Shown: piece after piece, positions 1,087 to 64,000 of the stretch
How the letters are laid out: each line of letters begins with the position of its first letter
Numbering within the stretch: the first letter of the stretch is position 1
NCBI GenBank assembly: GCA_902494875.1
Contig: CABUUO010000001.1
Span: 192,295-256,294 of the forward strand
Direction of reading: 5' to 3'
Length of the DNA stretch: 64,000 nt
From: an uncultured Pseudomonadota bacterium
GTDB lineage: Bacteria > Pseudomonadota > Alphaproteobacteria > RF32 > CAG-239
The notes under the pieces: model-generated
What the model was told of the DNA's origin: nothing
The model's database searches: none
The model's input: only the letters and a program-made list of their open reading frames with translations
Position numbers and translations under genes: made by a program

Positions 1087-4000
1087 TTAGTTCAATTTAT
1101 CCAACGCTCTGGCCAGAATATAATATACCTTGCCGATATCAGCGCCGGAAATGACCGACAGCAGAATGCCCGAACGTTCGTTGGTTCTGGCCTTGGTAAT
1201 AAGGGATTCAAACTCGGACAGATATTTGGTTACCAGCGTGCGAAACTCCATATTCTTTTCAAACTCGCCGCGGATGGCCAAAACCTGCTGTTTGGTCATG
1301 GTCTTGGAAAGGTAGCGTACAAAGGCCGCCGTATCGCCGTTATAGTACTTCTTCCAAATTTCTTCTTCCGCCGTCGGGTTAAAGATGCGGTTGATATCGA
1401 CCGAAGCGGTTTCCAGTTTTTCTATAATATAAGAAGCGTCTTTCAGGAAGCTGTCAACACGCACGCCCTCATAGCGTCTTTCAAGTTCGGCCAGCTTGCC
1501 GTCAGCCTTCTGTGAGGTCTCGTTCAAAACCTTAAGCTGTTTGTTGACAATATCGCTGAAAGAGATTGACTTTTTAATGATGTCGTCCCCTTTGGCCGAA
1601 AATTCGTTGGTACTGTCATTTAAGACATTCATAACATCGTTGACTTTTTTCAACGTATCGTCGGTTGCAACGACCAAAACGCCGGATTGTTTCAGGAAGA
1701 CTTCGCCCGAAGAACGGATTTCGTTGGAAATGCGCTCGGCATTGGCGGCAACTTCATTCAAGGTTGCGCGCAGTTTGCCGCTTGAGTTTTCAAAATGGGT
1801 GGAACTCATCTTGGTCGCCTCTTCCATCTGCATACTCAAAACTTTCAGGTTCTCGCCGAGGCCTTTGACCTTTTCATAGGCCATATTGGCACGGTTGGAA
1901 AGCTGGAGCGACGTATCGTTCAAAACGGTATTGAAACATTCCACCAGCTGCTTGGTATCTTCGGAAATCTTAATCATCTTGTCGCTCTGAGCGGAGATGA
2001 GATTGTTGATTTCAAAGACGCCGCTGCTGGCTTCAGCCGTAACCGTATTAAAGTTGGCTATGTATTTTTCATAATCTTTCATTACGTTGCCGATTTTGCT
2101 GCTGGAACTGTTAACGTTGACCGCCAAATCGTCAACCAGCTGGCTCAAGGACATGTTAACCTGCTCGACGTTCTTTATCGAATCACGGGAAGATTTGTTG
2201 ATGTCATCATTGACTTTAAGCAGCCTGTCACCCAGTACATTAAATTCATAGGCTATTTTGGCCGAAGTTTCAAATATGGTATCGGTACTGTTTTTGAAGT
2301 TGTTGTTGATTTCATTAACGCGCTGGGCAACTTCAGTCGAAGTGTCGGAAAGATATTTATACTGCTGCGCCAAAGAAGCCTCGCCCAAACGGGTTTGCGT
2401 CGCCACGGTATTGGCAATGTCGGTCAGAACCTCGCGCTGATGTTCGAAACTTTCGCGGATGGAATCCGTCTGGCTGACGGTCCGGTTTAAAATCTCGTCA
2501 ATATTTTTGGCCTGAGCATCCAAAACATCGGTCGTATTTTTGCTTTCAGCCGCCAAATTTTGATTGGCTGCATTAATCTTATCGCAGTTATCCAAAATAG
2601 AATTGGTAAACTCATCAGAACTGACTGTAAGATCTTTAACCGTATTGTTGAAAACCTGAAAGTTTTCTCTGAAAGCCGCGGCAATCTGCGCAATTTTATC
2701 GGAAATCTGCTGAATGAACTTGCTGACGTCATTGTTCTGCACGGCAATCGACTGATTAACCTCCGAAAGCTTGTCAATTGATTTGACGGAGTTGGCCACA
2801 ACCGCCTCAACTCTTTTGTTGACATCCTCTTCCAAAAGCGTCATCCGGGCGAAAACCTTATCGGCGTTCTGCTCAATGACGGCCACCTGTTTTTTGAGAT
2901 TGTTGCCCATATTGTCGGTGTTTTCGGTCAAGCGGTCGCAAATATTGAAAAATTCGTTTTCCTGCTGTTTGAACAACAGATTAATATTTTCAGCCTTTTC
3001 ATCCAAAAGCTGAACCACATCTGCCACATGGTTGACCGTTGCGCCGGTAATCTTGTCCAGCGTTTCATTCTGGCGGGCAAAAGCCTCCGTAATCTGCTGA
3101 AACGCGTTATCGGAGTTGGCAGTAGCAACATTGATGTTGGCAGCCTGTTTTTCCAAAACCTCGGACACATTCTCCGCACGTTCGGAAACACTCTGGGAAA
3201 CCTTATCCAGCTCCTGATAATGGTTGTTTAAAATACCGTCCATACGAATAACCTTATTCAAGGCCTGATCCGCCGTGTTGTCAAAAATGCCGGCCTGCTC
3301 GTTGAGGCTGGCACTGACCATTTTGGTCTTGGCGACAACGTCATTGCAGGAAGAAAGCGTTTCGCCCATCTGCTGTTTAAGCTGGCTGACAGTCGTTTCG
3401 GCTTCCTGCGTCAGATAAGACGCGGCGCGGGTCAACTCATCGATCTGATATTTGAGCTCAACTTTTATTTCTTCAATCCGGTTGACAGATTCCGCAATGT
3501 TTTTCTGCTGCTGAATCAAGGAATTTTCGCCAACCTTACTCTGAGCCACAACCAAGGACGCAGCCTCTTTAAGATTGTCGGTGTGTTTATTGATAACGCC
3601 GCCGATTTCCTCAAGTTCTTTTCTGGAAACATCTGCCTGTTCTTTCAGTCCGATGGTGCTGGCTCCGAGTTCCTGAAGCAGTAACTTCAAGTTCAGTACA
3701 ATACCGTCACTGACCTTCTGCAAAGTTTCACTGCGGCTTCCGACATCTTCGGACAACGCGGCAGACTTAGCCAGATGCTGTTCAGACAATGCCGATAATT
3801 TGGCGGTATTTTCTTCGGCCGAAGAAACCACATTCTGCATATTGTCAATAATTTCGGCTGAACGTTTTTCCAGAGTAACAGAACCGGCAGTCAGACGATT
3901 TTCCACGCCTTTAATATTGTCAAAAATCTCATCGGAAACGCCCTGAAGCTGATTAACCTGCGTGGCAACGCTCTCTTCTATCAAATTGGAACGAGCAATA

Positions 4001-5091
4001 ATCTTGTCGACTTCCATAGAAATCATGGCGTTGTGATCGCTGAATTTTGAAGTCAAAACGTCGCTTTCTTCATTCAGCTTGCCCAAATACCTTTCAACGG
4101 CTTCGCTCTGGCCGCGCAAAACTTCGTCAATTTTGTTAACACCGCCGTCTATCTTGCCATAGATGTCGTCGCAAACGGATACGGCGCCGTTGGCAACTTC
4201 TTCCAGCCGCGCCGTCTGAGAATCAAGTATCTGGATGACATTGTTTACGCTCTGAGCCGCCCGGTCTCCGAAATCAAGCAATGCCTGATTGGCCTTATCC
4301 ATTTTGGAATTGTTGTCATCGGCCATGCTTTGGAGCAACTGAGACGAGGTTTTGAGCTCTTGAATGTGGGGAATGATTTTGCCGAAAAGCTCGCCGCAGT
4401 TATTTTCCAGACCGGCCGCCGTGGCCGAAAAATCATTAATGTAACCCTTAAACATCTGAGTGGAATTCTGCGCACGTTCGGTCACATATTCAAAATTTTC
4501 AACCAGGGTTTTGACGCCGTCGGACAACTCGACAATCGTCTTGGTAGAATAATTGTCCAGCGTGTTGACAAGTTTGGAGAAATCGTTAACGCGGGCGCTC
4601 AGTTCCTTTTTTATCTTTTCGGTCTGCTCGGTTGCATGTTTGGTAACCTCATGGAGTTCAACCACCTGGGAACGGATGGCGTCAGCCATGGCTTTGGCGG
4701 TGTTGGCGCCGCCGTCTTCGGGATAAACGAGCTGATTCATATATGCGCGAAGGAATCTGGCTTCGTTCTTAAAACTGTTGCCGCGGTCAATATAAGCCAT
4801 AACAACCCAGATAATCGCCAAAGGCAGCGTTATGCCGGCCAGAAACGCACCGAACTCGTCGGGCATCATCAGGAAAAGGTTGGACCAGCCAAAAAACTGA
4901 GTAATGTAAATCAGTACGATGATAAACCAGATTACGCTGATGGAAATCATCAGCCTGGTCAGATTATTGTTTAACCAGCTTCCGTTTTCGGTTTCTTCGT
5001 TATAATTAATGCTGCTGGCTTCAGACATAAACCCCGGCAAAGACGAATCACTTTTGGCCGAGTTGTTATTGTCAACTTGTTGATTTGACAT
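1087..5091 (-). CDS. giant membrane-anchored coiled-coil protein, 1334 aa
   Basis: Track ORF. The N-terminus has two hydrophobic helices (ISISVIWFIIVLIYITQFFGW and FGAFLAGITLPLAIIWVVMAYI). About 1150 aa of heptad-like N/Q/E/K/S-rich helical sequence follows, then an approximately 90-aa C-terminal domain. Confidence 0.7.
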   Translation of the reverse strand: MSNQQVDNNNSAKSDSSLPGFMSEASSINYNEETENGSWLNNNLTRLMISISVIWFIIVLIYITQFFGWSNLFLMMPDEFGAFLAGITLPLAIIWVVMAYIDRGNSFKNEARFLRAYMNQLVYPEDGGANTAKAMADAIRSQVVELHEVTKHATEQTEKIKKELSARVNDFSKLVNTLDNYSTKTIVELSDGVKTLVENFEYVTERAQNSTQMFKGYINDFSATAAGLENNCGELFGKIIPHIQELKTSSQLLQSMADDNNSKMDKANQALLDFGDRAAQSVNNVIQILDSQTARLEEVANGAVSVCDDIYGKIDGGVNKIDEVLRGQSEAVERYLGKLNEESDVLTSKFSDHNAMISMEVDKIIARSNLIEESVATQVNQLQGVSDEIFDNIKGVENRLTAGSVTLEKRSAEIIDNMQNVVSSAEENTAKLSALSEQHLAKSAALSEDVGSRSETLQKVSDGIVLNLKLLLQELGASTIGLKEQADVSRKELEEIGGVINKHTDNLKEAASLVVAQSKVGENSLIQQQKNIAESVNRIEEIKVELKYQIDELTRAASYLTQEAETTVSQLKQQMGETLSSCNDVVAKTKMVSASLNEQAGIFDNTADQALNKVIRMDGILNNHYQELDKVSQSVSERAENVSEVLEKQAANINVATANSDNAFQQITEAFARQNETLDKITGATVNHVADVVQLLDEKAENINLLFKQQENEFFNICDRLTENTDNMGNNLKKQVAVIEQNADKVFARMTLLEEDVNKRVEAVVANSVKSIDKLSEVNQSIAVQNNDVSKFIQQISDKIAQIAAAFRENFQVFNNTVKDLTVSSDEFTNSILDNCDKINAANQNLAAESKNTTDVLDAQAKNIDEILNRTVSQTDSIRESFEHQREVLTDIANTVATQTRLGEASLAQQYKYLSDTSTEVAQRVNEINNNFKNSTDTIFETSAKIAYEFNVLGDRLLKVNDDINKSSRDSIKNVEQVNMSLSQLVDDLAVNVNSSSSKIGNVMKDYEKYIANFNTVTAEASSGVFEINNLISAQSDKMIKISEDTKQLVECFNTVLNDTSLQLSNRANMAYEKVKGLGENLKVLSMQMEEATKMSSTHFENSSGKLRATLNEVAANAERISNEIRSSGEVFLKQSGVLVVATDDTLKKVNDVMNVLNDSTNEFSAKGDDIIKKSISFSDIVNKQLKVLNETSQKADGKLAELERRYEGVRVDSFLKDASYIIEKLETASVDINRIFNPTAEEEIWKKYYNGDTAAFVRYLSKTMTKQQVLAIRGEFEKNMEFRTLVTKYLSEFESLITKARTNERSGILLSVISGADIGKVYYILARALDKLN

Positions 5092-16174: not shown

Positions 16175-18817
16175 CTAAAAACGATACTTTGCGTTAATCA
16201 TGCCGGTATGGTTCTGATAATCCTGCCGGAACTGTCCTTCATAACCAAATTCCGCTTCTAAGCGATCATTGACTTCGACCGAAAATCCGGCACCTATTTC
16301 CAGCCCCAAACGATGGAGCCGATCACCTTTGATGACGTATGACGAATTGTTGCTTAAGCCGACTAACGCATTATCGGTATCGGAAATAATATCATAAGTT
16401 AAGGCCAACCGTGCTTCGGGCTGCCAATTGGTTCCGTTGCAGGTTGTAAAGTTTTTTGCAACTCTGGCACCGGCAACTGCCGTTAAGACGTCCATCGTAC
16501 GGGAAGACACCCCCTGCCCCAGCGTATCCGTATAAGCTCCGCGGTCAATGCGGGCATAGCGCATTCCGCCTTCCGGCGTGACGTCAACATTGCCGACATT
16601 CAGTTCATAACCGCTCATCAATTGCAGTCCCAGCGTATCCGTATCATATTTAGATTTGACAATGCGGCCGTAAGCGCTTTTATGTTCTTTATAGTCAGCG
16701 AAGCTGTATGATGCGACAGCATTGAGATACCACTTTGACGGTTTATATTCTCCGTAAATAAAAATCGTATGCGTATCTATGTCCGTATCACGCAAAAAAC
16801 TTTCAACGTCGCTTTGGGTATATGCATAGCCCACACCTGCTTTGCTATTATCTCCGACAGCCTTTTCAAATCCCATGGCCACACCGCCGGATTTTGTATC
16901 AAAACCGTGCGTTTTAGAATTATCGTCAAGTTTTGATTTGTTCGCCAGCATCTGCACCCAGGAGGCTCCTTTATCAAAAATTCCGTCTCCGGCAGACATA
17001 CCGGGTAAAATGCCGGAGACAACGCCACCCGACAGCCTTGACGATACGGCATTAAAGACCTGAGAACTATGCTCGGTGGCAGCCGTTCTGGCTAACGGCG
17101 CGGCATCGGGAGCCAGAGCATAGGCTCCATCGACTATTTTTCCGCTGTCACTTCCGTTCTGAAGCGAAGTATTTATATAGTCCGCAATATCGTTAAAACT
17201 CTGATTGGAACCGTGACCGTTGGTAAAAGCATTGATGAGGCCGGCATTGTTTTTGCTCGTATTTAAAGCGCCTGCAATTTCCGTCTCTGTTTTCTTACCG
17301 CTGTAGAGTAATGAACCGTCATCGTTCAGTGCAAAATTGTAAAGATTATTGCTTATGTCAAATTTTCCTTCAATATGACCGCTTTGCAAGATGTCATAAC
17401 TGCCGATTTCCGTATCGGAATTAACTATCAGATTAAGCTTGGCGCCATCTTCAATGTTCAGTTCATCGGCTTTAATCGAAGCGTATTCAGAAGTGTCTTT
17501 TATACCGATATTCAGTTTGGAATTGCCGTTAAAGCTAATCGAACCGCCGGAGACCGAAGCTGTCGATGCCAGTGTAACTTCGGCATCGTTGACATTTATT
17601 TCTCCGTTGCCATCTATACCGCCGGTAAAAGATGTATGTCCGGATGAAATAGTCACTACGGAAGCATTATGAATATCATTTAATTTTCCGGCGGCGGTAT
17701 TGCCTTGAAAAATATTGTTCCCGCTCAAAGTCAGCGCTGCGTTTTTCTCTCCCCAAATAGCACCGCCGCTTGATGACGCTTTATTATTTATAAAAACGGA
17801 ATCTGAAATTTCCAATTGGCCGCCATTCCATTCTTCATTATATACAGCTCCGCCATTAACCGCCTGATTTTCTTCAAAACGCGTATTATAAATATGCATT
17901 TTTCCCTGATTATTAATCGCACCGCCTGAGGCATACCAACCGCCGGAGACCTTGTTATTGTAAAAATAGCTGTTGCGAATGGTCGTTTCGGCCGAAGGTC
18001 TGGCAAACAAAGCGCCACCCAAAGCCATAGATCCGACACTCACACTGTTATTGGCCATTATAACATTATCCAAATCGGCTTTACCGGCATTGGTTATTGT
18101 AGCATGAACCGTTCCACCACTTAAGCTGCTGCCCGAAATAGAAGAATCAAAAATTTTCAGGGAGCCGCCTTCTTTATTGAAAATTAACCCGGCATCCCCA
18201 TTGCTGACAAAATTGTACAAACCGCTTTTCTCATCAGCAGAATTACCGATATTTTCAAGGATAAGCTCTTTATCGCTATTTATAACAAAACCGATTTTGT
18301 TGTTGCCATTTATGGAATGACCGTTTCCATTAACAATTAAGACATCTGCACTCTGCCCCTCAATACTATTTTCTAAGGTTATATCACCGGTCAAATTAAT
18401 TTTTTCCGTACCGTTTTGTACCAGAAAAGAAAAATTTTTTCCGTTATCGGTAGTTACATCCCGGCTTAAAACCAAATGCAGAGTACTGTCTTTCCGGATG
18501 GAATAATCCTGAAGCGTATTGCCTGCCGCCAAACTGCTACCGGCAAAAGTCAACAGTTGGTTTTCCGGCGAAACACCTTCTTTATCATATATTTGGGCCA
18601 TAATATCTTCAATTCTGTCTGTCGGTTCGACTTCAAGGGTAATATGCTTGCCGCTCAGCGTTTTTACAAAAATCTGCATTGCCGAGGCATTTTCAGCACC
18701 AAGTATCATTACGGCAAACAATCCGGCATTAATCAACGCGCACTTCTTTAAAACGGAACGATATTTTGAAGTCAATACCTTTAAGGCGGTACGGGAATAT
18801 TTCATAAAGCTCTCCAT
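16175..18817 (-). CDS. autotransporter with an N-terminal ubiquitin-like domain and Pmp-type (GGA[ILV]/FxxN) passenger repeats
   Basis: 880 aa with an extended signal peptide. A 72-aa block, [72 protein letters not shown], is about 65% identical to eukaryotic ubiquitin by eye. It ends in LVLS, not LRLRGG. GGAI/FxxN repeats follow. The C-terminus ends ...NAKYRF, a typical terminal-Phe OM beta-barrel signature. Confidence 0.8.
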
Positions 18818-43396: not shown

Positions 43397-44140
43397 TTAG
43401 CTTTCGGACAGGTATCTGCTGAGAATTTTTTCCAGCAGGTCAGCCCATTCTTCCACCCCCTGCTCCAGATTGTCAAACTCGTCGTCGCGGATTTCTATTA
43501 AGGCATAGTCAAATCCTTTGCGTTCTCCGCAGAAGACAGCCGCGCCCGTATCATAGGCGCGCAGATCATAAGGAACGTTTTCACCGATCCGTTTATCGGA
43601 TTTGCACAGTTCTTCGTACATAAAAGAAGCCAGTTTTTGCGGCCGGCGATATAAAATTCCGGCTTGCCACGGACGATAGTTTCCGCCCCGAAGCTGCGGC
43701 GTAAAACTGTGAACGGAAAAAATGACCGGCTGTTTTCCCTTCTTTTGCAGTCTGGATATCTGCTTTTCAATTTCAGCATAATAAGGACGATAATAGCGGC
43801 TGACGCGTTTTTCTTTTTCTTCCGCCGACAACGACTGATTGCCGGGAACCGGAACCTTGTCGCTTTCCGCCACAATCAGTTCGTCTTCATCAACAGCGCG
43901 GTTCAGGTCTATTAAAAGGCGCGAATATCCGCCCATTACGGCAAAACATCCCAGTCGCTCCGCCAGTTTCTGCGTAACTTCTTTACAGCCCTTATCACGG
44001 GCAATGTGCGTATCCAACGCTTGCTCCGATAATCCGAGATTGCCATATTCGCCGGGGATGCGGGCCGAAGCGTGCTCACAAGTCAGAATCAGGCTATGTT
44101 CGGAATTTTCATTAACGATATTAAACACATTAGCGGCCAT
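43397..44140 (-). CDS. N-formylglutamate amidohydrolase (FGase) family protein
   Basis: 247 aa; LTCEHAS...; size and motifs resemble the FGase/HutG-like zinc amidohydrolase family. It overlaps the upstream 572-aa gene by 11 nt. Confidence 0.45.
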   Translation of the reverse strand: MAANVFNIVNENSEHSLILTCEHASARIPGEYGNLGLSEQALDTHIARDKGCKEVTQKLAERLGCFAVMGGYSRLLIDLNRAVDEDELIVAESDKVPVPGNQSLSAEEKEKRVSRYYRPYYAEIEKQISRLQKKGKQPVIFSVHSFTPQLRGGNYRPWQAGILYRRPQKLASFMYEELCKSDKRIGENVPYDLRAYDTGAAVFCGERKGFDYALIEIRDDEFDNLEQGVEEWADLLEKILSRYLSES

Positions 44141-45848
44141 TTCTCTTCATCTCCATAAATTTCTTGTTAAAACCGGCGTTAACATAAGGCACTTTGCCGG
44201 TTTCGTTCAAGGCGTGCATTATCAAAAGCCAGCACTTCTGCTCCTGCTCGATTACATCTTTTGAAACCGGCTTTTTCTGCGGATGGAAAGAATCATATTC
44301 ATACTGATAGAAATACGGCAGCGCATGCATAACGGTTTTGGTATCCGTCTGCCGGTTTTGACGCCAGGAATATTTGTTCAACAGCTGACGGTTTACATGA
44401 TCTGAACTGTTTTCCGCCGCAGATTTTACAAACTCACGATTAAACTGCAAAAAACCGCGGACAAAGCTTTTGTTGAAGTTGGCATTCATAAAGCGCATTT
44501 CCACCGTATGTTCGGGCATTATGTTCAAGGTTTTGTATTTATGACCGAAAGAGGTGAATTCCTGTAATTCACGCTTGTCTTCGCACAACTCGGCCATGAC
44601 GCACAAAAACGGATAGTCTCTTTTGCCGTCATCACTCAGGTTGCGGCTGATGTAAGTGGCATACAACAACCTGTTTTCCCGTCTTTCAGGCGCGGCAAAA
44701 GCGGCAACGACCTCTTCTTCATGCTGCATCATCCGTTTAACCAATCTTTTGTATACGTCAAGGTCAAATCCGTCCGCCGACAAATGCTGATGAAGAGAAC
44801 AATGGGCGTTGACATGTCCCTGCTCAAAAGAATCGAAAATTTTGAGACAGGATTCCTCGTCTTCCCGGCTTTTCAAAATGCGGCTGGCATACTCCACGGC
44901 CGCCAGTTTATTGTAGCGAACCAAACTTTCGTCACGCATGATGACACCAGCAGAATTTTCGTCATGATAAACCGCCGCGTCTTTATTGGTCGAATAAAGT
45001 TTTTTCCAACCGTTTTTATCTTTAAGATAATCTATCAGACGGCCATAGTCCTTATATTCTTCCGGTACGTAGAATTCCAGTTCAAAACCGCTGGGCCAGT
45101 AACCGCCGGAAGTTTTTCCGGGACGCGTTTCTTCGGCCTGGAACAGTTTTTTCATGGCCGGGCTTGCGGTACCTTCCCGCGCATAGTCCTGATAAAGACG
45201 TTCTTTCATCGCCGCCATATCTTTCATAAGCCGGCGGCGGGTTTTGAAATTGTAACTTCCGTCATAGCGATATGCTCCGGCCATTTTCTCGCGCATAAAA
45301 CAATCGGCAGCATATAACGCTTTTTCATAACAATTTTCGCCCTGAACCAATTTTTGATAGTTTTTATCCAGAAAACGCAGAATATCCTCGGCAGCCATCA
45401 TTCCGTAGAGCATGGAATAAGGCATATTGGTCTTTATCGGCCAACCGCTGAAAGCTTTGTCATGGTCATTTTTGTCGGCAAAATTATACATAAACTGCCG
45501 AAACTCAAAACCAAAGGTTTCCACGCCGTCAATCAGCGATGACAGCATTCCGTCCCCCGATTTTGAAAATTTTGAATTTTTCAAAACGCTGAGCTGCGGC
45601 TTGTCGACATTGTAAACGCTGACGGATGCCCGGATATCTTCGACAAATTCGTGAAATATGTGCGGCGCTTCCGCCCCGTACTGTTTGCTGAAATATTCGG
45701 CCAGCCCGGCGAACGGCGCCAGCATATTGTCAATATGCCAGTCATAGTAAAATTGTTTAAACTTTCTTCCGCCGATGGTTGAAAAATAATCGGCAAACAA
45801 TGAGTTACATTCTTTAACGCTGTTTTCTAAATTTTGATTTGATGACAT
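44130..45848 (-). CDS. hypothetical protein, 572 aa
   Basis: Track ORF with no recognisable domain; operonic with the FGase-like gene. Confidence 0.55.
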   Translation of the reverse strand: MSSNQNLENSVKECNSLFADYFSTIGGRKFKQFYYDWHIDNMLAPFAGLAEYFSKQYGAEAPHIFHEFVEDIRASVSVYNVDKPQLSVLKNSKFSKSGDGMLSSLIDGVETFGFEFRQFMYNFADKNDHDKAFSGWPIKTNMPYSMLYGMMAAEDILRFLDKNYQKLVQGENCYEKALYAADCFMREKMAGAYRYDGSYNFKTRRRLMKDMAAMKERLYQDYAREGTASPAMKKLFQAEETRPGKTSGGYWPSGFELEFYVPEEYKDYGRLIDYLKDKNGWKKLYSTNKDAAVYHDENSAGVIMRDESLVRYNKLAAVEYASRILKSREDEESCLKIFDSFEQGHVNAHCSLHQHLSADGFDLDVYKRLVKRMMQHEEEVVAAFAAPERRENRLLYATYISRNLSDDGKRDYPFLCVMAELCEDKRELQEFTSFGHKYKTLNIMPEHTVEMRFMNANFNKSFVRGFLQFNREFVKSAAENSSDHVNRQLLNKYSWRQNRQTDTKTVMHALPYFYQYEYDSFHPQKKPVSKDVIEQEQKCWLLIMHALNETGKVPYVNAGFNKKFMEMKRNGR

Positions 45849-55275: not shown

Positions 55276-55304
55276 GAAAAAGCGCCCCACAGGGCGCTTT
55301 TTTG
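55276..55304 (+). terminator. intrinsic terminator after bamE, at the boundary of the low-GC island
   Basis: A5-AGCGCCC-CACA-GGGCGCT-T6. Confidence 0.6.
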
Positions 55305-55468: not shown

Positions 55469-56386
55469 ATGCAGAAAAAATATCCCCATAAAATTGCGGT
55501 TCAGATATTCGGCCATTTGCGCAGTTATAAAAACTGCATTTCCGCTCTGAAGAAAAATCTTTTGGATCGATATGACTGTGATGTATTTATGCATTGCTGG
55601 GACGTTTCGGACTACACTCAAAATACATCCGTCACTAAAGATGAGATTGCACATATTAAAAGTATGTACGCCTTAAAAGATTTTAAAATGGAATCTCAAA
55701 AAAAACATGAGCCCATGCGTATTCCGTGTCTCGCAACGAGCAAAGCACAGCACATTGACATTTATGCGATGAAAAATATGCTGTATTCAATGCAGCAGGC
55801 CAATCACCTGAGAAAACTGTATCAACAGAAAAAAAACATAAAATACGATATTGTTATCTGCATCCGCCCTGACATATATCTGAAGAGTCCCATCCCCCTT
55901 GATTTGTTTTTATCCGAAATGTCCGTTTTGGGCGCATCACTAAAAAACAAACGTTTTTGCGCTGTTAATTATAATAAGCGGCAAAAAAATTATATTTTAA
56001 GTACCGATTTGGCCAGTGACATTATAACCTTTGCAGAACAGGACACTATGGATGCCATTATATCGGCTCTGTCACAAATTGACTTTGTCAAAGAACAAAA
56101 ACGGTTTTGGAATCCGGAAAGTTTTTATTCTGCCGTTTTGGAAGAACACGGCATTTCGTCGTATGCCATTACCTATAATTATCGGGACAACTGGGAAATT
56201 ATGCGTCCCATATATTTAAAATCTTTGAATGTTCGGCGGCTGCGTAAAAAAATCATTAAAATTCATATCAACAAGCGGGAGCTGCGCGTTTTTTTATTTA
56301 ATTTCATTCCCAAAGAAGTTTTTAATTTTGAAGCCGTTTTTTTTGAGAAATTTACAATACAATTTTGCATAGGAATTCCGAAATGA
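55469..56386 (+). CDS. hypothetical protein, 305 aa; first gene of the low-GC island
   Basis: Track ORF in about 30% GC DNA; the stop overlaps the next start (ATGA). Confidence 0.5.
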   Translation: MQKKYPHKIAVQIFGHLRSYKNCISALKKNLLDRYDCDVFMHCWDVSDYTQNTSVTKDEIAHIKSMYALKDFKMESQKKHEPMRIPCLATSKAQHIDIYAMKNMLYSMQQANHLRKLYQQKKNIKYDIVICIRPDIYLKSPIPLDLFLSEMSVLGASLKNKRFCAVNYNKRQKNYILSTDLASDIITFAEQDTMDAIISALSQIDFVKEQKRFWNPESFYSAVLEEHGISSYAITYNYRDNWEIMRPIYLKSLNVRRLRKKIIKIHINKRELRVFLFNFIPKEVFNFEAVFFEKFTIQFCIGIPK

Positions 56387-58008
56387 CAAATACCATCATT
56401 TTATCTGCAGGAAAATTTAACCCCAAGAACATTTCAGCCGGCATGATCAGCGATCCCGGTTTGTTGCCAATCAGAGGTAAACCAGCTATCAACTGGTGCA
56501 TAGACTCTGCAATGAAAAACGGAGCTGAGAATATTAAAATTATTCTCAGAGAAAGCAATACGCGCCTCAGCCGCTTTCTAGGATACAGTTACCCCGAAGT
56601 TCAGCAGTATTTCATTGACAGCAACTCTGACTTTTCATCATCCGTATTGAACATTTTATCCGATTGCGACGAAAACCAGCCCACACAAATTATTCTCGGA
56701 GACACGCTTATTGACGAACCGTTTCCGGATGAGGCCGATGTTTTCTTATCTTCACCAAACATCAAAGCTTCCAAGCAATGGTGTCTGGTTACGAAAGACG
56801 ATCAAAACCATATTGAAAGAATATATAACAAAGAACGTGACATATCTATTGCCGGCAAAGAGGCCTTGGTTGGTTATTATAAATTTTCAGACACAGCCCT
56901 GTTAAAGAAACTCACCGCTCTGGAGTTAAAATCACCAAATTGCAGTTTTATTAACATTTTGCTCAATTATAACCGCAAACATCCGATTGTTATTAAAACG
57001 ACGCAGAGATGGTTCGACTTCGGCCATATCAGCGGCGCGGTTCAGGCCAGATTGGGATTGTTCAGCGCTAGGGAATTCAATTCGCTCAAAGTTGATGCCG
57101 TACGCGGAACCATTACCAAAATATCAAAGAAAAAACAAAAGCTTTTGGATGAGGCAAACTGGTATCAAAAACTTCCGGCGGACGTATCGTGTTACGCTCC
57201 CCGGGTTTTCAATGTTACCGAAACAGATGAACTTGCCAGCGTAGAAATGGAGCTTTACGGCTATGCCAATTTAGCAGAAACTTTTATTTACGGTTCCAAC
57301 AATCTGGAAGACTGGTACAACATTATTGAAGCGTTGTTAAAGGTGCATAAAGTCTTTGAAAATTATACCGAACCACAAAACAAAGAAGAGCTGGAAGAAA
57401 TTTACCGCAGCAAAACCCGGCAAAGAATAAATGACATTCAGAACAAAAATCCTGAAATTGCCAAAATGATGCAAAGCGATTATTTATCCATCAATAATGT
57501 TCATTATAAAAATTATCCTTTGTTGAAAAAAAGCCTAGATAAAGAAATTGATGCTCTGACAAACTATCCCAAAAGGACAATTGTCCATGGAGACTATTGT
57601 TTTTCCAATATTTTATTTGACCCGATGCATTATATTTTCAAACTGATTGATCCCCGCGGCAGATTCAAAACGCAAAGTATTTACGGAGATCCCCGTTATG
57701 ATATTGCAAAACTTCGCCACAGCATCGTCGGACTGTATGATTTTATAGTCGCCGGATTATACAAATTGAAAATTGCGGCTCCGGACGTATATGAATTTCA
57801 AATTTCTACGCCGATTTTAACTGAAAAGCTCGAACCTTTCTTTGACGAACTGGTTGTTGAATACGGATATGACCGCAGAGAAATAAAACTTATTGAGGCT
57901 CTGCTCTTTTTAACCATGATTCCTCTGCATGCCGACGACGTTAACAGACAAAAAGCTTTTTACCTTACTGCAATTCAAAAACTAAACGAGGTTTTATATG
58001 ATGAATAA
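56383..58008 (+). CDS. bifunctional nucleotidyltransferase / APH-choline-kinase-like kinase fusion
   Basis: The real start is MTNTIILSAGKFNP. The N-terminal ~230 aa are sugar-phosphate nucleotidyltransferase-like. The C-terminal ~300 aa carry the kinase catalytic loop HGDYCFSNILFD and IDPRG of the APH/ChoK fold. Confidence 0.55.
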   Translation: MTNTIILSAGKFNPKNISAGMISDPGLLPIRGKPAINWCIDSAMKNGAENIKIILRESNTRLSRFLGYSYPEVQQYFIDSNSDFSSSVLNILSDCDENQPTQIILGDTLIDEPFPDEADVFLSSPNIKASKQWCLVTKDDQNHIERIYNKERDISIAGKEALVGYYKFSDTALLKKLTALELKSPNCSFINILLNYNRKHPIVIKTTQRWFDFGHISGAVQARLGLFSAREFNSLKVDAVRGTITKISKKKQKLLDEANWYQKLPADVSCYAPRVFNVTETDELASVEMELYGYANLAETFIYGSNNLEDWYNIIEALLKVHKVFENYTEPQNKEELEEIYRSKTRQRINDIQNKNPEIAKMMQSDYLSINNVHYKNYPLLKKSLDKEIDALTNYPKRTIVHGDYCFSNILFDPMHYIFKLIDPRGRFKTQSIYGDPRYDIAKLRHSIVGLYDFIVAGLYKLKIAAPDVYEFQISTPILTEKLEPFFDELVVEYGYDRREIKLIEALLFLTMIPLHADDVNRQKAFYLTAIQKLNEVLYDE

Positions 58009-58384
58009 TGAAAAAAAGTTGAGAATATGCATAGATCTTGACGGAACAATCTGCGAGATCAGAAAAGATCCTCAAACTTATGCCGACGTTAAGGCCAAGC
58101 CCGGTGCCAAAGAACGTATTCATGCGTTAAGGGCCGCCGGCCATACCGTTATTATCAATACTGCACGCAATATGGGATCAACCGGACATAATGTCGGCAA
58201 GGCTCTAAAAAATGTCGGTAAGATGACTTTTGAATGGTTAGAGAAAAACGGAATTGAATATGACGAGATATTTTTCGGCAAACCTAATGCAGATATTACC
58301 ATTGATGACCGAGTTGTCCGTTTTGAAGACAACTGGGAAGAAATGACAGAAGATGTGTTAAATAAAGCTGCAAAAGCGAAATAG
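57998..58384 (+). CDS. small HAD-superfamily phosphatase
   Basis: 128 aa; DxDGT motif (CIDLDGTIC), later GKPN and IDD motifs; overlaps the upstream gene by 11 nt. Confidence 0.55.
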   Translation: MMNNEKKLRICIDLDGTICEIRKDPQTYADVKAKPGAKERIHALRAAGHTVIINTARNMGSTGHNVGKALKNVGKMTFEWLEKNGIEYDEIFFGKPNADITIDDRVVRFEDNWEEMTEDVLNKAAKAK

Positions 58385-58392
58385 GTGTTAAA

Positions 58393-59112
58393 ATGTTAAA
58401 TATTGTAATTCCGATGGCCGGTGCCGGCAGCCGTTTCAAAGCGCAAGGCTATGATTTGCCCAAGCCGTTTATTGACATTAACGGCAAAATGATGATTGAG
58501 CATGTTCTTGACGGTATAAACTATCCGAACGCACACTATACCCTGATTATTCAAAAGCAATTTGAAACAGAAAATCGTGACCAGTTGGAAAAACTTTCCA
58601 AACACTATCATGTTGCGTTTCTTTCTGTTGACAAACTGACACAAGGAGCTTGCTGCACGGCTCTGGCCAGCCATGAAATCATCAACAACAATCTTCCCGT
58701 TATTTTTGCAGATTCTGATAATATTTTTGATAATCTGGCCTTTCAAAATTTTGTCAAAGACTGTTTGGATCGGAAGCTCGACGGCAGTCTGCTTACATTT
58801 AACACGCAAGAGGCTTGTTTTTCTTTTGTGGAAACGGATGAGAACGGCTATGCCCTGCGAACAAAAGAAAAAGAAGTTATCTCCAATCATGCAATTACGG
58901 GAGTTTATATGTTTCGCCGCGGAGCCGATTTTGTAAAAAACGCTATAGACATGATGATATACGGCGATAAGGCAAAAAATGAATATTACATGAGCAATGT
59001 CTATAATCACGCAATAAAAAACGGAGCTCAAATAGGCATTTATGACATTCATGTTCAAGACTGGGCGTGTGTCGGCACCCCCGAACAATTGAAAAAATAT
59101 CTGGGAGACTGA
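58393..59112 (+). CDS. sugar-phosphate nucleotidyltransferase
   Basis: 239 aa; N-terminal MLNIVIPMAGAGSRF and C-terminal DWACVGTPEQL match the NDP-sugar pyrophosphorylase fold signature. Confidence 0.7.
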   Translation: MLNIVIPMAGAGSRFKAQGYDLPKPFIDINGKMMIEHVLDGINYPNAHYTLIIQKQFETENRDQLEKLSKHYHVAFLSVDKLTQGACCTALASHEIINNNLPVIFADSDNIFDNLAFQNFVKDCLDRKLDGSLLTFNTQEACFSFVETDENGYALRTKEKEVISNHAITGVYMFRRGADFVKNAIDMMIYGDKAKNEYYMSNVYNHAIKNGAQIGIYDIHVQDWACVGTPEQLKKYLGD

Positions 59113-59113
59113 A

Positions 59114-61089
59114 ATGCATAGTACCCTCTCCGAAACCCATTTGTTCATTCTTTGGCCGAACGGAAGACAAAAAGAAAAAGAAGTTATGGAAATTGTAAAG
59201 AAAAATTTCCAGATTTTGAAGCTTTATGAAATATTATGGTCGCAAGATAAAATTTTAGATAACTACACTTCCTTTTACGGCTTTGACCACTCTCAAAACC
59301 ACAACATAATCAATGAGCGAGGGGGGGGTATTTTCTACTTATGATTGTTAGAGACAATAATCCAAAGTACGAAAACAGAATGACTTCAAAAGGAATGGTT
59401 CCTGTTAACATTAATACATCAGATGTTAAATCATATATCAGAAATGTTATTTTTCAGGGAATAAACCTGCTTCATGGAACCAACTCTGAAGAAGAAACCA
59501 GACATGACTTAGCTCTGTTACTGGGACGCAGCCTTTCTGACTTTTTAAAAGAAACCAAACTTGATGGGGCATTAGAAAAATTATCTCAAAATCTTCCGGC
59601 AGTAGACGGATGGAAAAGTCTTTCTCAGGTATTTTATATTCTTAATGAAACATGCAGATACGCTGTTTTGAGAGGTTTTGAAAAACTTCCAGGCAATTTT
59701 ACTCCTTTTGACGGGGATATCGATCTTTTGATTGAAGACCCTCAGTGCTTTACTTATACCTTAATGTCAGCCCAGTCTGACGGTTCCAATGATTTCGCTT
59801 TTGCCAATTTAGTAAAAGTTAAAGACAGTATTTTCAGTTTTCATACCAAATATATAGGCGACGGTTATTATGACACCCGGATGTCGCAAAAAATTATTGA
59901 CACGAGACAAAAAAATAAAGCAGGCATTTATATTCCGTCTGATGAAATGTATTTTTACGAACTTTTATACCATGGCATTATACATAAAACCAATTATTTA
60001 AAATATGCTGACATTTTTAAAACCTTGGCTTCAGAATTAAAAATAGAAAAATTTAACCTAGAGTTTTCTTATTTAAAAAAACTGATAAATACGTGGCTGA
60101 AAAACAACAATTACAAATGCCCTCTTCATTTAGACCATACGAGAAGCAGGCATAATGAGAACATATCCGAAAAAAAACTGATAAAAGATATTCCCGATAT
60201 ATATATTTATCAAAATCATACGGATACAATCATCTTCAGTTCTTTATTAATAGCACGGCATCCGGGCCTAGCCTCCAGATATACAAAAATATGCGGTCCT
60301 TATCATAATTGGCAGCAGCATCTCTTGTCTCCGGAACATAAACTTTACAAAGAGATGTCTCGTAAGGCGGCAAAGGGACAAATTGCCTGGATTTTCAAAA
60401 AAAGATTTGGCCGGATAATGTTGACGACATTGACGGTAAAATCCGGAGAAACCATTTTTACCAGAAAGATATTAGGAACCCCGCAAGATATTGAATCTCC
60501 ATATCTGATTGTCACGGCAGATAAAAAAAGGAAATTTATTGCCGGAAACAACGTAGGAAATATCTTAAGTTCAATAAAAGATTCAAATATTCTCAAGATA
60601 GAACTGGAGAAATTCGTTGGTGAAGTTTTTTCGCAGTATCGTACCGGCAATGCTGCTTTATTGCAGCCAAACGCATGGGATGCCGTACCTCATAATTGCA
60701 TTTTAACCAATGAAAACAATTATTGTTTTTTTGATTTTGAGTATTCATTAAAACACGGCGTTGACAAGTCATATATGCTATGGAGAATTATCCGTCATAC
60801 CAATATGATAATACAAGACAAATTTTCTCTATATGATGAATTCTGCAAAAAGTTTAATCTTGAAAATAAGTTTTTCTGGTGTGAATTTCTGGATGCTAAA
60901 ATTCATGAAAGGCTCTTAGACGCATACTCTATGCCTCCGAGTTTTATTAATAAAATAAAAAAGTTTTTAATTAATCTGACGGTTACACCAATCGCTCAAA
61001 AAAATTTACGAGATAAATACAGAAAAAAACTGGAACGTCATTTTCTTTTTTTCAACCAAAAATTATGGAAAAGATATTTTATTAACTAG
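59114..61089 (+). pseudogene. large hypothetical protein split by a G8 homopolymer (76-aa ORF plus 582-aa ORF); G9 would give one 658-aa product
   Basis: ORF 59114..59344 is in frame 2 and ORF 59341..61089 is in frame 1. The frame-1 reading is open from 59317, across the G tract at 59321-59328. Inserting one G fuses ...NERGGG to YFLLMIVRDNN... without a stop. Confidence 0.55.
59321..59328 (+). repeat. poly-G homopolymer (G8), candidate slipped-strand phase-variation tract
   Basis: GGGGGGGG in a region of roughly 30% GC; its length determines the reading frame of the 658-aa gene. Confidence 0.6.
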
Positions 61090-61105
61090 CAAATGAGAGG
61101 TTTTA

Positions 61106-61923
61106 ATGAATAAAAATAAAATTTATAATAAGCTTATAAAGTTATTATCTTATTTCATTCCGCTGTCAAATAACAGAAAAAACTTTCGTAAAAAATTTCT
61201 AAAAAACAACATTTGTGCTGATGTTTCTTCCAGTATAGTAAATTATGGTCATAACAACATTGTAAAATTAATTCTGGAAAATGGTGAAGAAATTATAAAT
61301 CCTGCTATTTCTGGCCTAAAAATCATATTTTACGGAAATAATAATCTGGTTGTCTTGCATTCTCCAATTCAATTTCGGGCATCTACATTTGAGATGCAGT
61401 CTGATTCTTTGATTAACATACAAAAAAGCAAATATTTTTTATGTAATCTAAATATTTCTCCTATGAACAATAATACACTATTAATAGGCAGAGATTTTTC
61501 CTGTTCATCTGTTAATATCCGTTTACATGATGAACCCAAGCTTACTGTTAAAATAGGCGATGATTGTATGTTTTCTCATGATATTGAAATTCGTTCGAGT
61601 GATGGGCATACAATATTAAACAGAAAGACAAAAGAGATATTAAATCCAGCAACAGACATTAAAATTGGCAACCATGTTTGGATTGGCATGAGATGTATTT
61701 TATTAAAAAATACACAAATTCCAGATCATTCTATACTCGGCGCTAATTCTCTCATAAATAAATCTTTTTCCGCCTCACACAACCGGGGGGGGTGGTTATT
61801 GCAGGGATACCCGCCAAGATTGTCAAGAACGATATTGTTTGGCTTAGGCACAGTACAAATCTAGCCTCTGAAGAAATTATAGACGATTTCTACAAAGAAT
61901 ATAAAATTAATATGAAGGAATAA
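61106..61923 (+). pseudogene. hexapeptide-repeat (left-handed beta-helix) acetyltransferase truncated by a G8 tract; G9 would give a 272-aa product
   Basis: The track ORF ends ...SHNRGGWLLQGYPPRLSRTILFGLGTVQI*. The +1 frame after the tract reads VVIAGIPAKIVKNDIVWLRHSTNL...KINMKE*, the canonical C-terminus of LbH acetyltransferases. The upstream part has IKIGNHVWIGMRCILLKNTQIPDHSILGANSLI hexapeptide repeats. Confidence 0.65.
61785..61792 (+). repeat. poly-G homopolymer (G8), candidate slipped-strand phase-variation tract
   Basis: GGGGGGGG followed by TGG; inserting one G restores the acetyltransferase C-terminus. Confidence 0.6.
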
Positions 61924-61927
61924 TAGT

Positions 61928-63148
61928 ATGAAGACGCTACAGAAAGCTATAATTACGCCAACTTTTTCAGGACATTTTGGTTATATAAAAAACTATTTAA
62001 AAAGTTTCGATCGTTATCTTATAGATCGTGATTTTCCAATATTTTTTATTATAAATAAAAATGAAAACAGTATTTTTTCTCCTATTATCCAAAAGTACCG
62101 TAATCGTTTAAATTTAAATGTAATTTTTCTTGATGATATTTTTGAACATTTCAAAATTGACGAAACACCGGAAGAAGCCTTAAGCAAATATGGACGTTTA
62201 TCTTTTCAAACATTAAAAAAATTTTACGGGGCATTATACGTTAATGCTAAAGAATTTTTATTTCTTGATTCAGAGAGTATGTTAATAAAACCAACGAACA
62301 TATCTCTGCTTTTCGATGATTATTTTAAAAAACCAACATTTTTTATTTCTCGAATATCTGAGAGGGCTCAAGGCTTCAAAGAAAACTTTACATATGAATT
62401 TTTAAATGCGGTTACAAACCTTTTAGGAAAAAAACCAGAGTACTGGAGTATTGAATCTTATGAATGGTTTTATAAACTAGACATATTGAAAGATCTGATA
62501 AATGATTTGGGAACACCTATCGAAATTGTAAAGAACTATAAAATGCCCGGTAAGTTTCCAAATATCGAAGGAATTCTGGAAGCTCTTCTTTATTATCAAT
62601 ATATTTTATACCACAATGACAAATACGGCTATACAATCAAAATAATAGAAGATGAGCTCAGAGAAGCTCTGGGAGATAATAACTATAAGAGATTCCGTCA
62701 GTATTTTGACAAATCGCCCTTTTTTATATGTGGCGTTTTAGAAACGGCAATGTTTTTTATCGATAAGGACAATGCTGATGGTTTCATTCATTTCCTAAAC
62801 AAATATAAAATCCGTTTATTACGTGTAGAAGATCCTAAAATTAACAATGCAACGGCCCAAATAAAAATAATTAAGAATACGGGAATTCATATTTGTCCAT
62901 CTTCTCAGAACCATATCTTTGGAATAAACAGTACAATAAAAAAACGTTTCAATATACTGATAGGAAATAACAGAAATATTCAAAAACTGAAAAAACATTT
63001 TACTAAATTTGCCAAACCATTCATTTTTATTTGCAAGCCATTTCTGGCTACGATTAAATGGATGTTTGAAATTATTCCCATTTGCATTTATTCATTGAAA
63101 TCATTGAATATCGTTTTGAAAAATCTAAAAAATATATTGTTTGGGTGA
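61928..63148 (+). CDS. hypothetical protein, 406 aa (possible glycosyltransferase-like)
   Basis: Track ORF in the island; no motif I can name with confidence. Confidence 0.45.
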   Translation: MKTLQKAIITPTFSGHFGYIKNYLKSFDRYLIDRDFPIFFIINKNENSIFSPIIQKYRNRLNLNVIFLDDIFEHFKIDETPEEALSKYGRLSFQTLKKFYGALYVNAKEFLFLDSESMLIKPTNISLLFDDYFKKPTFFISRISERAQGFKENFTYEFLNAVTNLLGKKPEYWSIESYEWFYKLDILKDLINDLGTPIEIVKNYKMPGKFPNIEGILEALLYYQYILYHNDKYGYTIKIIEDELREALGDNNYKRFRQYFDKSPFFICGVLETAMFFIDKDNADGFIHFLNKYKIRLLRVEDPKINNATAQIKIIKNTGIHICPSSQNHIFGINSTIKKRFNILIGNNRNIQKLKKHFTKFAKPFIFICKPFLATIKWMFEIIPICIYSLKSLNIVLKNLKNILFG

Positions 63149-63157
63149 TTTGCAAAA

Positions 63158-64000
63158 ATGACTAATATACAAAAATCAGACATCACATTCATATGCAGCG
63201 GCAAGATATTTGCAGGAAAAAAATTTAATACTCTTGCATCAATAAAATCCGTAAAAAAATATTTTCCTGAATCCAAGATAATTCTTTCGACATGGGAAGG
63301 AGAAAATATTGAGCCTTTTGAAAAATTCTGTGATTTAATAATATTAAATCCATGCATGGAAATGAAATATCATACTTGTTTGGAATCATGTTCTTGGTAC
63401 CCTAAATTGAATTCTTATGATTTGCAGCAAAAGAGCGTCAATGCCGCATTACGACAATGTAAAACTAAATATGCCGTTCGGTTCAGAACCGATTTTGTTC
63501 TTAAAAATGACAACTTTTTAAAAAAGTACATTGAATTTGAAAATATCTTTGATCGGTTTGTACCTGAATATAAAATATTTCAGAACAAAGTTCTGATTCA
63601 TCAAACCGGAACAATTTCTCCTTATACCAAAGATGTTCCGATGCTTCATCATCCTTCAGAATTATTCCATTTTGGTCTAACTGAGGATTTATTGAAAATA
63701 TGGACCGGAAAGAATATGCCAGAAAAGATTGCAGATTACTTTCATGATGAAAACCATAATGAGAGCAATCCGTGTCTTTTTAATCATAGATATACACCAG
63801 AACAGTATATTTGGTTAAAAATGCTTGATGATTCCGGTGTCGGCTACGAAAAACCGGACTATTATCTTTCCTTTTCCGAAAAAATGAGACAAGAACAAGA
63901 CAGGCTTTTCATTTCTAATTTCATTATTCTTGATGCGCAAGGCTTGGGAATATCATCGAAATTTGATGAAAAATTGAAACATGTACAACATCGTTTTTAT
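63158..64000 (+). CDS. hypothetical protein, 5' part; the ORF is open to the window end
   Basis: ATG at 63158, which I translated by hand as MTNIQKSDITFICSGKIFAGKKFNTLASIKSVKKYFPESKIILSTWEGENIEPF... The frame stays open to 64000. It is absent from the track because it has no stop in the window. Confidence 0.5.
   Translation, partial: MTNIQKSDITFICSGKIFAGKKFNTLASIKSVKKYFPESKIILSTWEGENIEPFEKFCDLIILNPCMEMKYHTCLESCSWYPKLNSYDLQQKSVNAALRQCKTKYAVRFRTDFVLKNDNFLKKYIEFENIFDRFVPEYKIFQNKVLIHQTGTISPYTKDVPMLHHPSELFHFGLTEDLLKIWTGKNMPEKIADYFHDENHNESNPCLFNHRYTPEQYIWLKMLDDSGVGYEKPDYYLSFSEKMRQEQDRLFISNFIILDAQGLGISSKFDEKLKHVQHRFY

Follow-up and report, generated by a model that had tools for sequence, protein, structure and literature searches.

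The subject of this study is a pair of homopolymeric G tracts in a stretch of 64,000 nucleotides from an uncultured alphaproteobacterium (GTDB lineage Pseudomonadota; Alphaproteobacteria; RF32; CAG-239; GenBank assembly GCA_902494875.1, contig CABUUO010000001.1, positions 192,295 to 256,294 of the forward strand), which as a whole we call the window. Each tract lies within one of two adjacent genes of a glycan-biosynthesis cluster: tract 1 interrupts the gene for a 658-residue protein, and tract 2, located 2.4 kb downstream, shifts the frame of the adjoining acetyltransferase gene. The original prediction, made from the letters of the window, had proposed phase variation at tract 1 and overlooked tract 2. 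Here, we compare both tracts across public assemblies and conclude that they are probably slipped-strand (contingency-locus) switches, both of which are out of frame (OFF) in the window, as opposed to in frame (ON). The features on which the argument rests are the following.

59321..59328, + strand: poly-G tract 1, G8, OFF here; encodes Gly70-Gly72 of the 658-residue protein, with G9 ON and G8 or G10 OFF
59114..61089, + strand: full gene of the three-domain 658-residue protein, frameshifted in the window; recognised from the G9 reconstruction, homologs, family alignment, AlphaFold2 model and fold matches
59114..59344, + strand: 5' fragment in the G8 state, 76 residues; native residues 1-72 followed by IFYL, stop codon TGA at 59342-59344
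59341..61089, + strand: 3' fragment in the G8 state, 582 residues; native residues 77-658
61785..61792, + strand: poly-G tract 2, G8, OFF here; codons 226-229 of the acetyltransferase gene, length varies elsewhere
61106..61923, + strand: predicted hexapeptide-repeat (LbH) sugar O-acetyltransferase (Pfam Hexapep), 272 residues if tract 2 is G9

Results

Tract 1 splits a conserved gene

The G8 run of tract 1 (GGGGGGGG, preceded by a and followed by t) is present at exactly the positions that had been reported, within the sequence AATGAGCGA-GGGGGGGG-TATTTTCTACTTATGATTG, and both of the open reading frames (ORFs) said to flank it, of 76 and 582 residues, occur in the ORF list of the window. The stop codon of the first overlaps the start codon of the second (ATGA at 59341-59344), and, as had been stated, the downstream frame opens at 59317, directly after a TGA codon at 59314-59316. 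The proposed repair by one extra G also holds: when tract 1 is set to G9 in silico, a single ORF of 1977 nucleotides results, which encodes 658 residues and contains zero internal stops. G6 and G12 likewise restore the frame in silico, while G7, G8, G10 and G11 lead to a stop within codons 76-79 (codon 76 for G8 and codon 79 for G10), the frame being shifted after codon 72. In the G10 state, an in-frame ATG at 59313 opens an ORF of 592 residues. The 582-residue product of the G8 state has an exact match (P0045) in the public protein collection.

The fused ORF is a real gene, as follows from its homologs, the family alignment, the predicted structure and the fold searches. A full-length homolog of 658 residues (P0001) is 99% identical to the G9 reconstruction, and further homologs of 658-682 residues, with 38-46% identity, align with 99% of the length of the fused protein. 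The family alignment, which comprises 14 sequences, is conserved across the junction between the two fragments, and the codons of tract 1 encode part of an RGxGxF motif in which G70, G72 and F74 are invariant and R69 is nearly invariant (at least 90%). Within the N-terminal 76 residues, W14, R18, E21, K36, W42, N50 and Y55 are invariant as well. The AlphaFold2 model of the 658-residue protein has a mean predicted local distance difference test score (pLDDT) of 89 and a predicted template modelling score of 0.82. In this model, residues 1 to about 150 form a single NDK-like domain, with block-mean pLDDT values mostly between 82 and 97 and a value of 70 for residues 1-10, and tract 1 encodes a loop that links the helix of residues 63-69 to the strand of residues 73-81.

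Fold searches with the 658-residue protein point to NDK-like, nucleotidyltransferase-fold and APH/choline-kinase-like domains, and the search with the AlphaFold2 model returned the NDK fold for the N-terminal domain. By sequence, that domain has no match to PF00334, in Pfam or NCBIfam, even when the isolated domain was searched at E-values up to 10, and the protein as a whole has no meaningful match in Pfam, NCBIfam or PDB. The only PDB sequence match, ZCCHC8 (E of at least 0.07), was treated as spurious. The invariant H121 (in LHGTN) aligns with the catalytic His of NDK (THGSD in a sequence of Escherichia coli Ndk), an alignment that is weak in hhalign (E 0.075, probability below 1%).

The protein belongs to a family for which neither Pfam nor NCBIfam has a model and which comprises 1,981 representative clusters, 597 of which are found at E of 1e-30 or lower, and relatives are present in human and animal gut metagenomes. 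Most of the family clusters share only the first ~340 residues, i.e. the module of NDK-like and nucleotidyltransferase-fold domains, which stands by itself or is joined to further domains, among them GT2, GT8 and kinase domains, and is duplicated in some cases. We therefore consider the 658-residue protein a conserved putative enzyme that may be linked to glycan synthesis, as suggested by gene fusion and neighbourhood. None of the characterised phase-variable enzymes that we found is homologous to it.

Tract 2 determines the C-terminus of an acetyltransferase

The second G8 run frameshifts the gene directly downstream. As found in the window, the ORF of the acetyltransferase spans 61106-61864 and encodes 252 residues with an aberrant C-terminus. 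With G9 at tract 2, the ORF instead ends at 61923 and yields the canonical C-terminus NRGGVVIAGIPAKIVKND, for a total of 272 residues; in silico, G8 gives the 252-residue protein with the aberrant tail and G10 a protein of 247 residues. The Hexapep family (PF00132) matches with 36.3 bits against a gathering cut-off of 27 (E 3.9e-9), and matches to models of the WbbJ, LacA and Maa types reach residue 242, beyond tract 2, in the G9 frame only. None of the three equivalog models WbbJ, LacA or Maa claims the protein, the best score being 42 bits against cut-offs of 243-347. Judged by sequence, the acetyltransferase is a member of the hexapeptide-repeat (LbH) superfamily, of no specific equivalog.

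Because tract 2 is located near the 3' end of the gene (codon 226 of 272), a change in its length swaps or truncates the C-terminus and does not abolish translation. The alternative C-termini, of 26 or ~20 unrelated residues, lose the conserved LbH segment, and out-of-frame lengths would more likely inactivate the enzyme than provide a working alternative tail. At both tracts, the in-frame state encodes a conserved, putatively functional protein, according to the sequence comparisons and, for the 658-residue protein, the structural model.

Both tracts, and no other homopolymer, vary in length

The locus was gathered from independent public assemblies (Logan, SPAdes-type contigs from ENA, and NCBI; the contigs are numbered L001 and upward) through look-ups of exact proteins. 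Tract 1 was read in 16 assemblies, the window included, and tract 2 in nine. At tract 1, G8 is found in four assemblies (the window, L003, L028 and L029) and an in-frame sequence in nine, which are G9 in L001, L002, L005, L006, L015, L017, L018 and L019 and, in L022, an in-frame G10 made by a C>G substitution of the base that follows the run (L022:5822). An out-of-frame G10 occurs in two (L004 and L020), and in the remaining one (L027, SRR30025238; L027:6009) the tract is an interrupted, out-of-frame G7TGG, GGGGGGGTGG. The product of this interrupted allele (P0041) is found in three contigs, and the allele could be a partly 'locked' OFF variant. The base 3' of the tract is T, C or G depending on the strain, so that residue 73 is Tyr, His or Asp. 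The commonest state, in-frame G9, is also the form that is conserved across the protein family. The ON, G8 and G10 states are represented in the cluster of proteins at 90% identity, by members of 658, 656 and 634 residues (ON), 582 residues (G8) and 592 residues (G10); the 634-residue members differ only in the start that was called, their DNA being identical.

Of the nine assemblies read at tract 2, five have G8, two have G9 and two have G10. For this tract, the products of all lengths from G6 to G12 were predicted before they were looked up: the exact sequences for G8, G9 and G10 are present in a collection of 15 billion proteins, and those for the other lengths in this range are absent from it. 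The lengths of the two tracts occur in the combinations 8/8, 9/8, 9/9, 9/10 and 10/8 (tract 1/tract 2), and these five combinations indicate that the tracts vary independently.

In an alignment of positions 55469-63060 of the window (~7.6 kb) over 8-13 assemblies, insertions or deletions (indels) are confined to the two tracts, at a background of 19-24 columns with single-nucleotide polymorphisms per ~3 kb. Some 20 runs of seven or eight A or T in the aligned locus show zero length variation in these 8-13 assemblies, and a C6 run in plsX does not differ in length among the assemblies compared. The lack of any other indel and of any varying A/T homopolymer argues against generic miscalling of homopolymers, and rapid length change appears to be specific to the G runs in this locus.

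The comparison of related strains called for by the original prediction places G8, G9 and G10 on identical or near-identical haplotypes. L006 and L020 align over 17,177 nucleotides with 0 mismatches and one gap of 1 nucleotide, at tract 1 (G9 versus G10). L003 and L019 have 0 mismatches over 6,464 nucleotides and differ only in G8 versus G9 at this tract, and the window and L019 have nine mismatches and a single gap, again G8 versus G9, over 12,895 nucleotides. As to the provenance of the first pair, L006 is Logan assembly ERR4341777 and L020 is ENA assembly ERZ28565136 (SAMEA7045770); the two may be one sample assembled twice, in which case the reads were mixed. Length change at the tracts is therefore much faster than point substitution, by at least three orders of magnitude per site according to our rough estimate.

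A plasmid collection searched with the locus by blastn and tblastn gave no match, nor did a scan of JGI metagenome contigs for the exact pattern of the tract flanks. A protein-based scan of the same contigs gave four distant relatives only, and a scan of GTDB genomes gave eight, from metagenome-assembled genomes (MAGs) of Gastranaerophilales, Muribaculaceae and Alphaproteobacteria, none of them of this species. The glycan loci of distant homologs in other MAGs bear poly-G or poly-C runs of their own (L013:9041; L014:2501 and 18021; L010:3013; L026:4220): an Avigastranaerophilus locus has a G8 where its acyltransferase-3-like ORF ends (3'), another alphaproteobacterium has an in-frame G8 in an aminotransferase gene, and a Muribaculaceae MAG has a G11 between genes; a further run, C8, is located at a contig end.

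Run lengths and codon choice at the tracts

The two G8 runs are the sole runs of seven or more G or C in the window and, within its own run-length distribution (282 G3, 36 G4, 5 G5, 0 G6, 0 G7 and 2 G8), are outliers. For the 8.5-kb island of low guanine-cytosine (GC) content in which they are located, an analytical estimate gives 0.03 expected runs of eight or more, and the Poisson probability of two or more is ~4e-4. The surroundings had been described as DNA of 30% GC, which is too low for tract 1: the GC content is 44.6% for the window and 37.9% for the block at 58-60 kb, which holds tract 1 (~38%), and drops to 30-32% farther downstream (31.8% in the block at 60-62 kb). A scan of the window revealed no other notable tandem or short-unit repeats, and one tRNA is its sole Rfam element.

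The codons at tract 1 are unusual too. Among the 114 Gly codons that the cluster has outside the tracts, GGG is the least used, with 6, and under this codon usage the chance of three successive GGG codons is ~1e-4. The RGxGxF motif is encoded here by CGA-GGG-GGG-GGG; relatives of the protein use CGAGGTAACGGA (CGA-GGT-AAC-GGA) or AGAGGAGAAGGA (AGA-GGA-GAA-GGA), neither of which contains a homopolymer. Tract 1 is built by a lineage-specific codon choice, which fits a mutable site that has evolved or is tolerated, by analogy with classical contingency loci.

The glycan gene cluster and its surroundings

Both genes are part of a tightly packed cluster on one strand, the other features of which are listed here.

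55276..55303, + strand: strong intrinsic-terminator-like hairpin after bamE, at the upstream edge of the cluster
55469..64000, + strand: glycan-biosynthesis cluster, 30-39% GC, same-strand and tightly packed, running past the end of the window
55469-56386, + strand: DUF7796-like protein, 305 residues
56365-58008, + strand: fused nucleotidyltransferase-like and APH kinase protein
57998-58384, + strand: HAD capsule-type phosphatase ('capsule biosynthesis phosphatase EcbF/BcbF' type)
58393-59112, + strand: NTP transferase, adjoining the gene of the 658-residue protein
61928-63148, + strand: 406-residue protein without assigned function
63158 onwards, + strand: WavE (lipopolysaccharide core synthesis)

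The assignment of tract 1 to a surface-glycan gene, already made in the original prediction, is supported by this context, with its nucleotidyltransferases, kinase, capsule-type HAD phosphatase, O-acetyltransferase and WavE. In other assemblies the cluster stops before mfd/recG and varies in gene content, with two or three WavE genes; the acetyltransferase gene is absent in L004 and L005. The cluster is flanked by rpmF, plsX, fabH, ihf and a MerR-family gene. The nearest named homolog of FabH, 75% identical, is labelled 'MAG: Alphaproteobacteria bacterium'. Together with the flanking genes, it assigns the organism to uncultured Alphaproteobacteria that are represented by metagenomes only.

Elsewhere in the window, all on the reverse strand, three ORFs were noted in passing. 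An ORF of 880 residues (16178-18817) carries two domains, a ubiquitin-family domain in its N-terminal part (residues 49-119; PF00240, E 4e-20) and an autotransporter beta-domain at residues 620-860 (PF03797, E 8e-47), and a ubiquitin fold of eukaryote type as an autotransporter passenger is unusual for a bacterium. An ORF of 1,334 residues (1090-5091) has weak matches (ATG17-like, DUF948), all of them under the Pfam gathering score. An ORF of 572 residues (44133-45848) encodes an Amidoligase_2 protein (PF12224) and adjoins an N-formylglutamate-amidohydrolase-like gene.

Discussion

Our data suggest that the two poly-G tracts act as slipped-strand switches in adjacent glycan genes. At both tracts, the repeat lies within an ORF and is long enough for a contingency locus (a G/C run of about 7-8 or more), the gain or loss of one unit decides whether the product is full-length or truncated, and indels on near-identical genomes are concentrated at the tract. 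The mechanism put forward in the original prediction, slipped-strand phase variation through poly-G, is supported by the recurrence of G8, G9 and G10, by a second tract that behaves alike and by the constancy of the A/T runs. In the proposed mechanism, mispairing at replication would add or remove one G at either tract. At tract 1, which would be a 5'-proximal translational switch (codon 70 of 658), G9 would give the full 658-residue enzyme, and with G8 or G10 the frame would be lost after codon 72. At tract 2, G9 would give the full 272-residue O-acetyltransferase, and G8 or G10 would replace or truncate its last ~45 residues. Because the tracts switch independently, one strain may show up to four combinations of glycan modification. 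Switching would be fast and reversible within a population, the products of both genes may modify a surface glycan of the lipopolysaccharide/lipooligosaccharide or capsule type, and the variation could be adaptive, for instance as an escape from phage or host immunity.

Several points weigh against this interpretation. The tract lengths are consensus values of metagenome assemblies, one value per assembly, some of the 16 assemblies may share one biological sample, and Illumina two-colour chemistries are prone to errors at poly-G. Dinucleotide shuffles of the whole window contain a mean of 1.0 G8 runs, and two or more in 26 of 100 shuffles; the earlier claim that a G8 run is statistically unusual thus fails against whole-window shuffles and stands for the 8.5-kb island and the run-length series. 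Our view of this genome is limited to 64 kb. Since the 658-residue protein lacks a match in Pfam, NCBIfam and PDB, the term 'surface glycan' is based on fold similarity and neighbourhood.

Could the organism in fact have intact genes, with G9, and could G8 be a homopolymer miscall of sequencing or assembly? In the window, each tract needs exactly one more G to be in frame, as systematic under-calling would give, the source is a metagenome assembly whose proteins are found only in metagenome-derived sets of NCBI, ENA and Logan, and L006 and L020, which are identical but for the tract, might be two assemblies of one sample. However, many independent assemblies, made by different pipelines, repeatedly show three length classes for each tract, with G8 in four assemblies at tract 1 and in five at tract 2, the ~20 A/T runs of seven or eight nucleotides and the C6 run in plsX are constant in length, and full-length domain matches were obtained for all other long ORFs that were annotated in the rest of the window. 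Moreover, assemblers that disagree only at the tract most likely reflect a mixed population of reads, which is itself a signature of phase variation. We therefore regard an artefact as very unlikely. A non-adaptive origin, in which dispensable accessory genes contain the tracts as mutational hot spots and have become, in the G8 alleles, decaying pseudogenes fixed in some strains, seems less remote, as the cluster is accessory, its gene content is variable and the acetyltransferase gene is missing in some strains. In addition, tract 2 is OFF in seven of nine assemblies, and the interrupted, out-of-frame G7TGG in three contigs is what would be expected if OFF states can become fixed. Yet no OFF allele of either gene carries a second disabling mutation, both halves of the 658-residue gene stay open over 1,977 nucleotides, and both tracts show states of +1 and -1 relative to the in-frame length. 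Identical haplotypes occur with ON as well as OFF alleles, which indicates that the OFF states are very recent and one slip away from reversal. Also, tract 1 uses the least common Gly codon at a motif that has no repeat in relatives, which would be difficult to account for unless mutability is selected for or at least tolerated. On balance, a non-adaptive explanation appears unlikely to us.

A different objection is that the gene of the 658-residue protein is not OFF at all, because the G8 allele might be decoded to full length by -1 ribosomal frameshifting or transcriptional slippage. The zero-frame sequence G_GGG_GGT is formally an X_XXY_YYZ heptamer, and a slip by -1 yields the protein sequence of the G9 allele, RGGGYFLL. 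The 92 nucleotides downstream, however, fold with -15.3 kcal/mol (z = -1.58), a stability matched by 11 of 200 shuffles. Most alleles are plain in-frame G9, and G10 alleles, which would need the opposite shift, exist too; the out-of-frame arrangement is therefore not conserved, unlike that of a programmed site. Relatives moreover have no slippery sequence at the position of the motif. A programmed -1 frameshift site at tract 1 was accordingly rejected, there being no convincing stimulatory structure and a predominance of in-frame alleles, and recoding in general strikes us as extremely improbable. Possibly the OFF states are themselves not null, and tract 1 switches between three states that differ in which domains of an uncharacterised three-domain glycan enzyme are made. 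In the G8 state, termination and reinitiation at the ATGA could yield a split or N-terminally truncated enzyme; the reinitiated product (residues 77-658) would lose an intact NDK-like domain and keep the nucleotidyltransferase-fold and kinase-like domains. We hold this to be an outside chance, and favour slipped-strand switching between full-length and inactive products for both genes.

How does this locus relate to known switches? Slipped-strand phase variation of surface glycans is textbook knowledge for a few cultured mucosal pathogens (Campylobacter, Neisseria, Haemophilus and Helicobacter). For gut commensals, the discussion of phase variation centres mostly on invertible promoters. The likeness of the present locus to Campylobacter, Haemophilus and Neisseria is one of mechanism. 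In Haemophilus influenzae, lic1, lgtC and lex2 mediate phase variation of lipooligosaccharide through tetranucleotide repeats, which resembles the present locus in its contingency-locus logic and differs from it in the repeat unit of 4 nucleotides. The lic1 locus likewise encodes a pathway with a kinase and a nucleotidyltransferase, a likeness by gene type only. Closer in kind are the poly-G tracts in phase-variable capsule, lipooligosaccharide and flagellar-glycosylation genes of Campylobacter jejuni (PMC6097035, PMC13317227, PMC3907429), of which strain 81-176 has 20 putative phase-variable genes, mostly with poly-G in coding direction and five in the capsule locus (PMC6097035). As in C. jejuni, the G tracts here run in coding direction inside the reading frame of genes that would modify glycans, toggle between ON and OFF by one base, and form several independent tracts within one low-GC glycan locus, so that their states combine (into 'phasotypes'). 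Unlike C. jejuni, the host is an uncultured alphaproteobacterium, there are two tracts in 64 kb compared to 20 genes per C. jejuni genome, and no sequence relation was found between the 658-residue protein and any characterised enzyme.

Similar comparisons can be made with Neisseria, in which lgtA, lgtC, lgtD and pgtA carry poly-G tracts in glycosyltransferases for lipooligosaccharide and pilin (pgtA, PMC2193922; survey, PMC5084427). There, too, poly-G on Gly codons of a glycan-biosynthesis gene makes expression dependent on the frame, with length differences from strain to strain; the Neisseria genes, however, encode classical glycosyltransferases in another taxon and niche, and our evidence is comparative only. 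For tract 2, the nearest parallel is Helicobacter canadensis, in which homopolymeric tracts switch the C-terminal sequence (PMC2823697). The position of tract 2 near the 3' end of its gene, at codon 226 of 272, similarly lets the C-terminus be swapped or truncated, although the alternative C-termini found here lose the conserved C-terminal LbH segment. More generally, gene inactivation by homopolymers has been described as a general prokaryotic device (PMC2831843). A literature search returned no paper on phase variation in this lineage and nothing relevant on RF32-type gut Alphaproteobacteria. What is new here is thus the organism; the mechanism, slipped-strand variation at poly-G, is already known.

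In conclusion, the homopolymer switch mechanism would extend to a gut alphaproteobacterium that is uncultured and represented by metagenomes only. The mechanism may be recognised from public assemblies alone, by length variation on identical haplotypes and by frame-shifted products that exist as exact database entries. The genes at both tracts should accordingly be annotated as phase-variable and not as pseudogenes, and the states of the tracts could serve as a ready-made marker of within-host populations of this organism. The 658-residue protein, a member of a widespread, uncharacterised family that is elsewhere fused to GT2 and GT8 domains, would be a reasonable target in the search for a new glycan modification.

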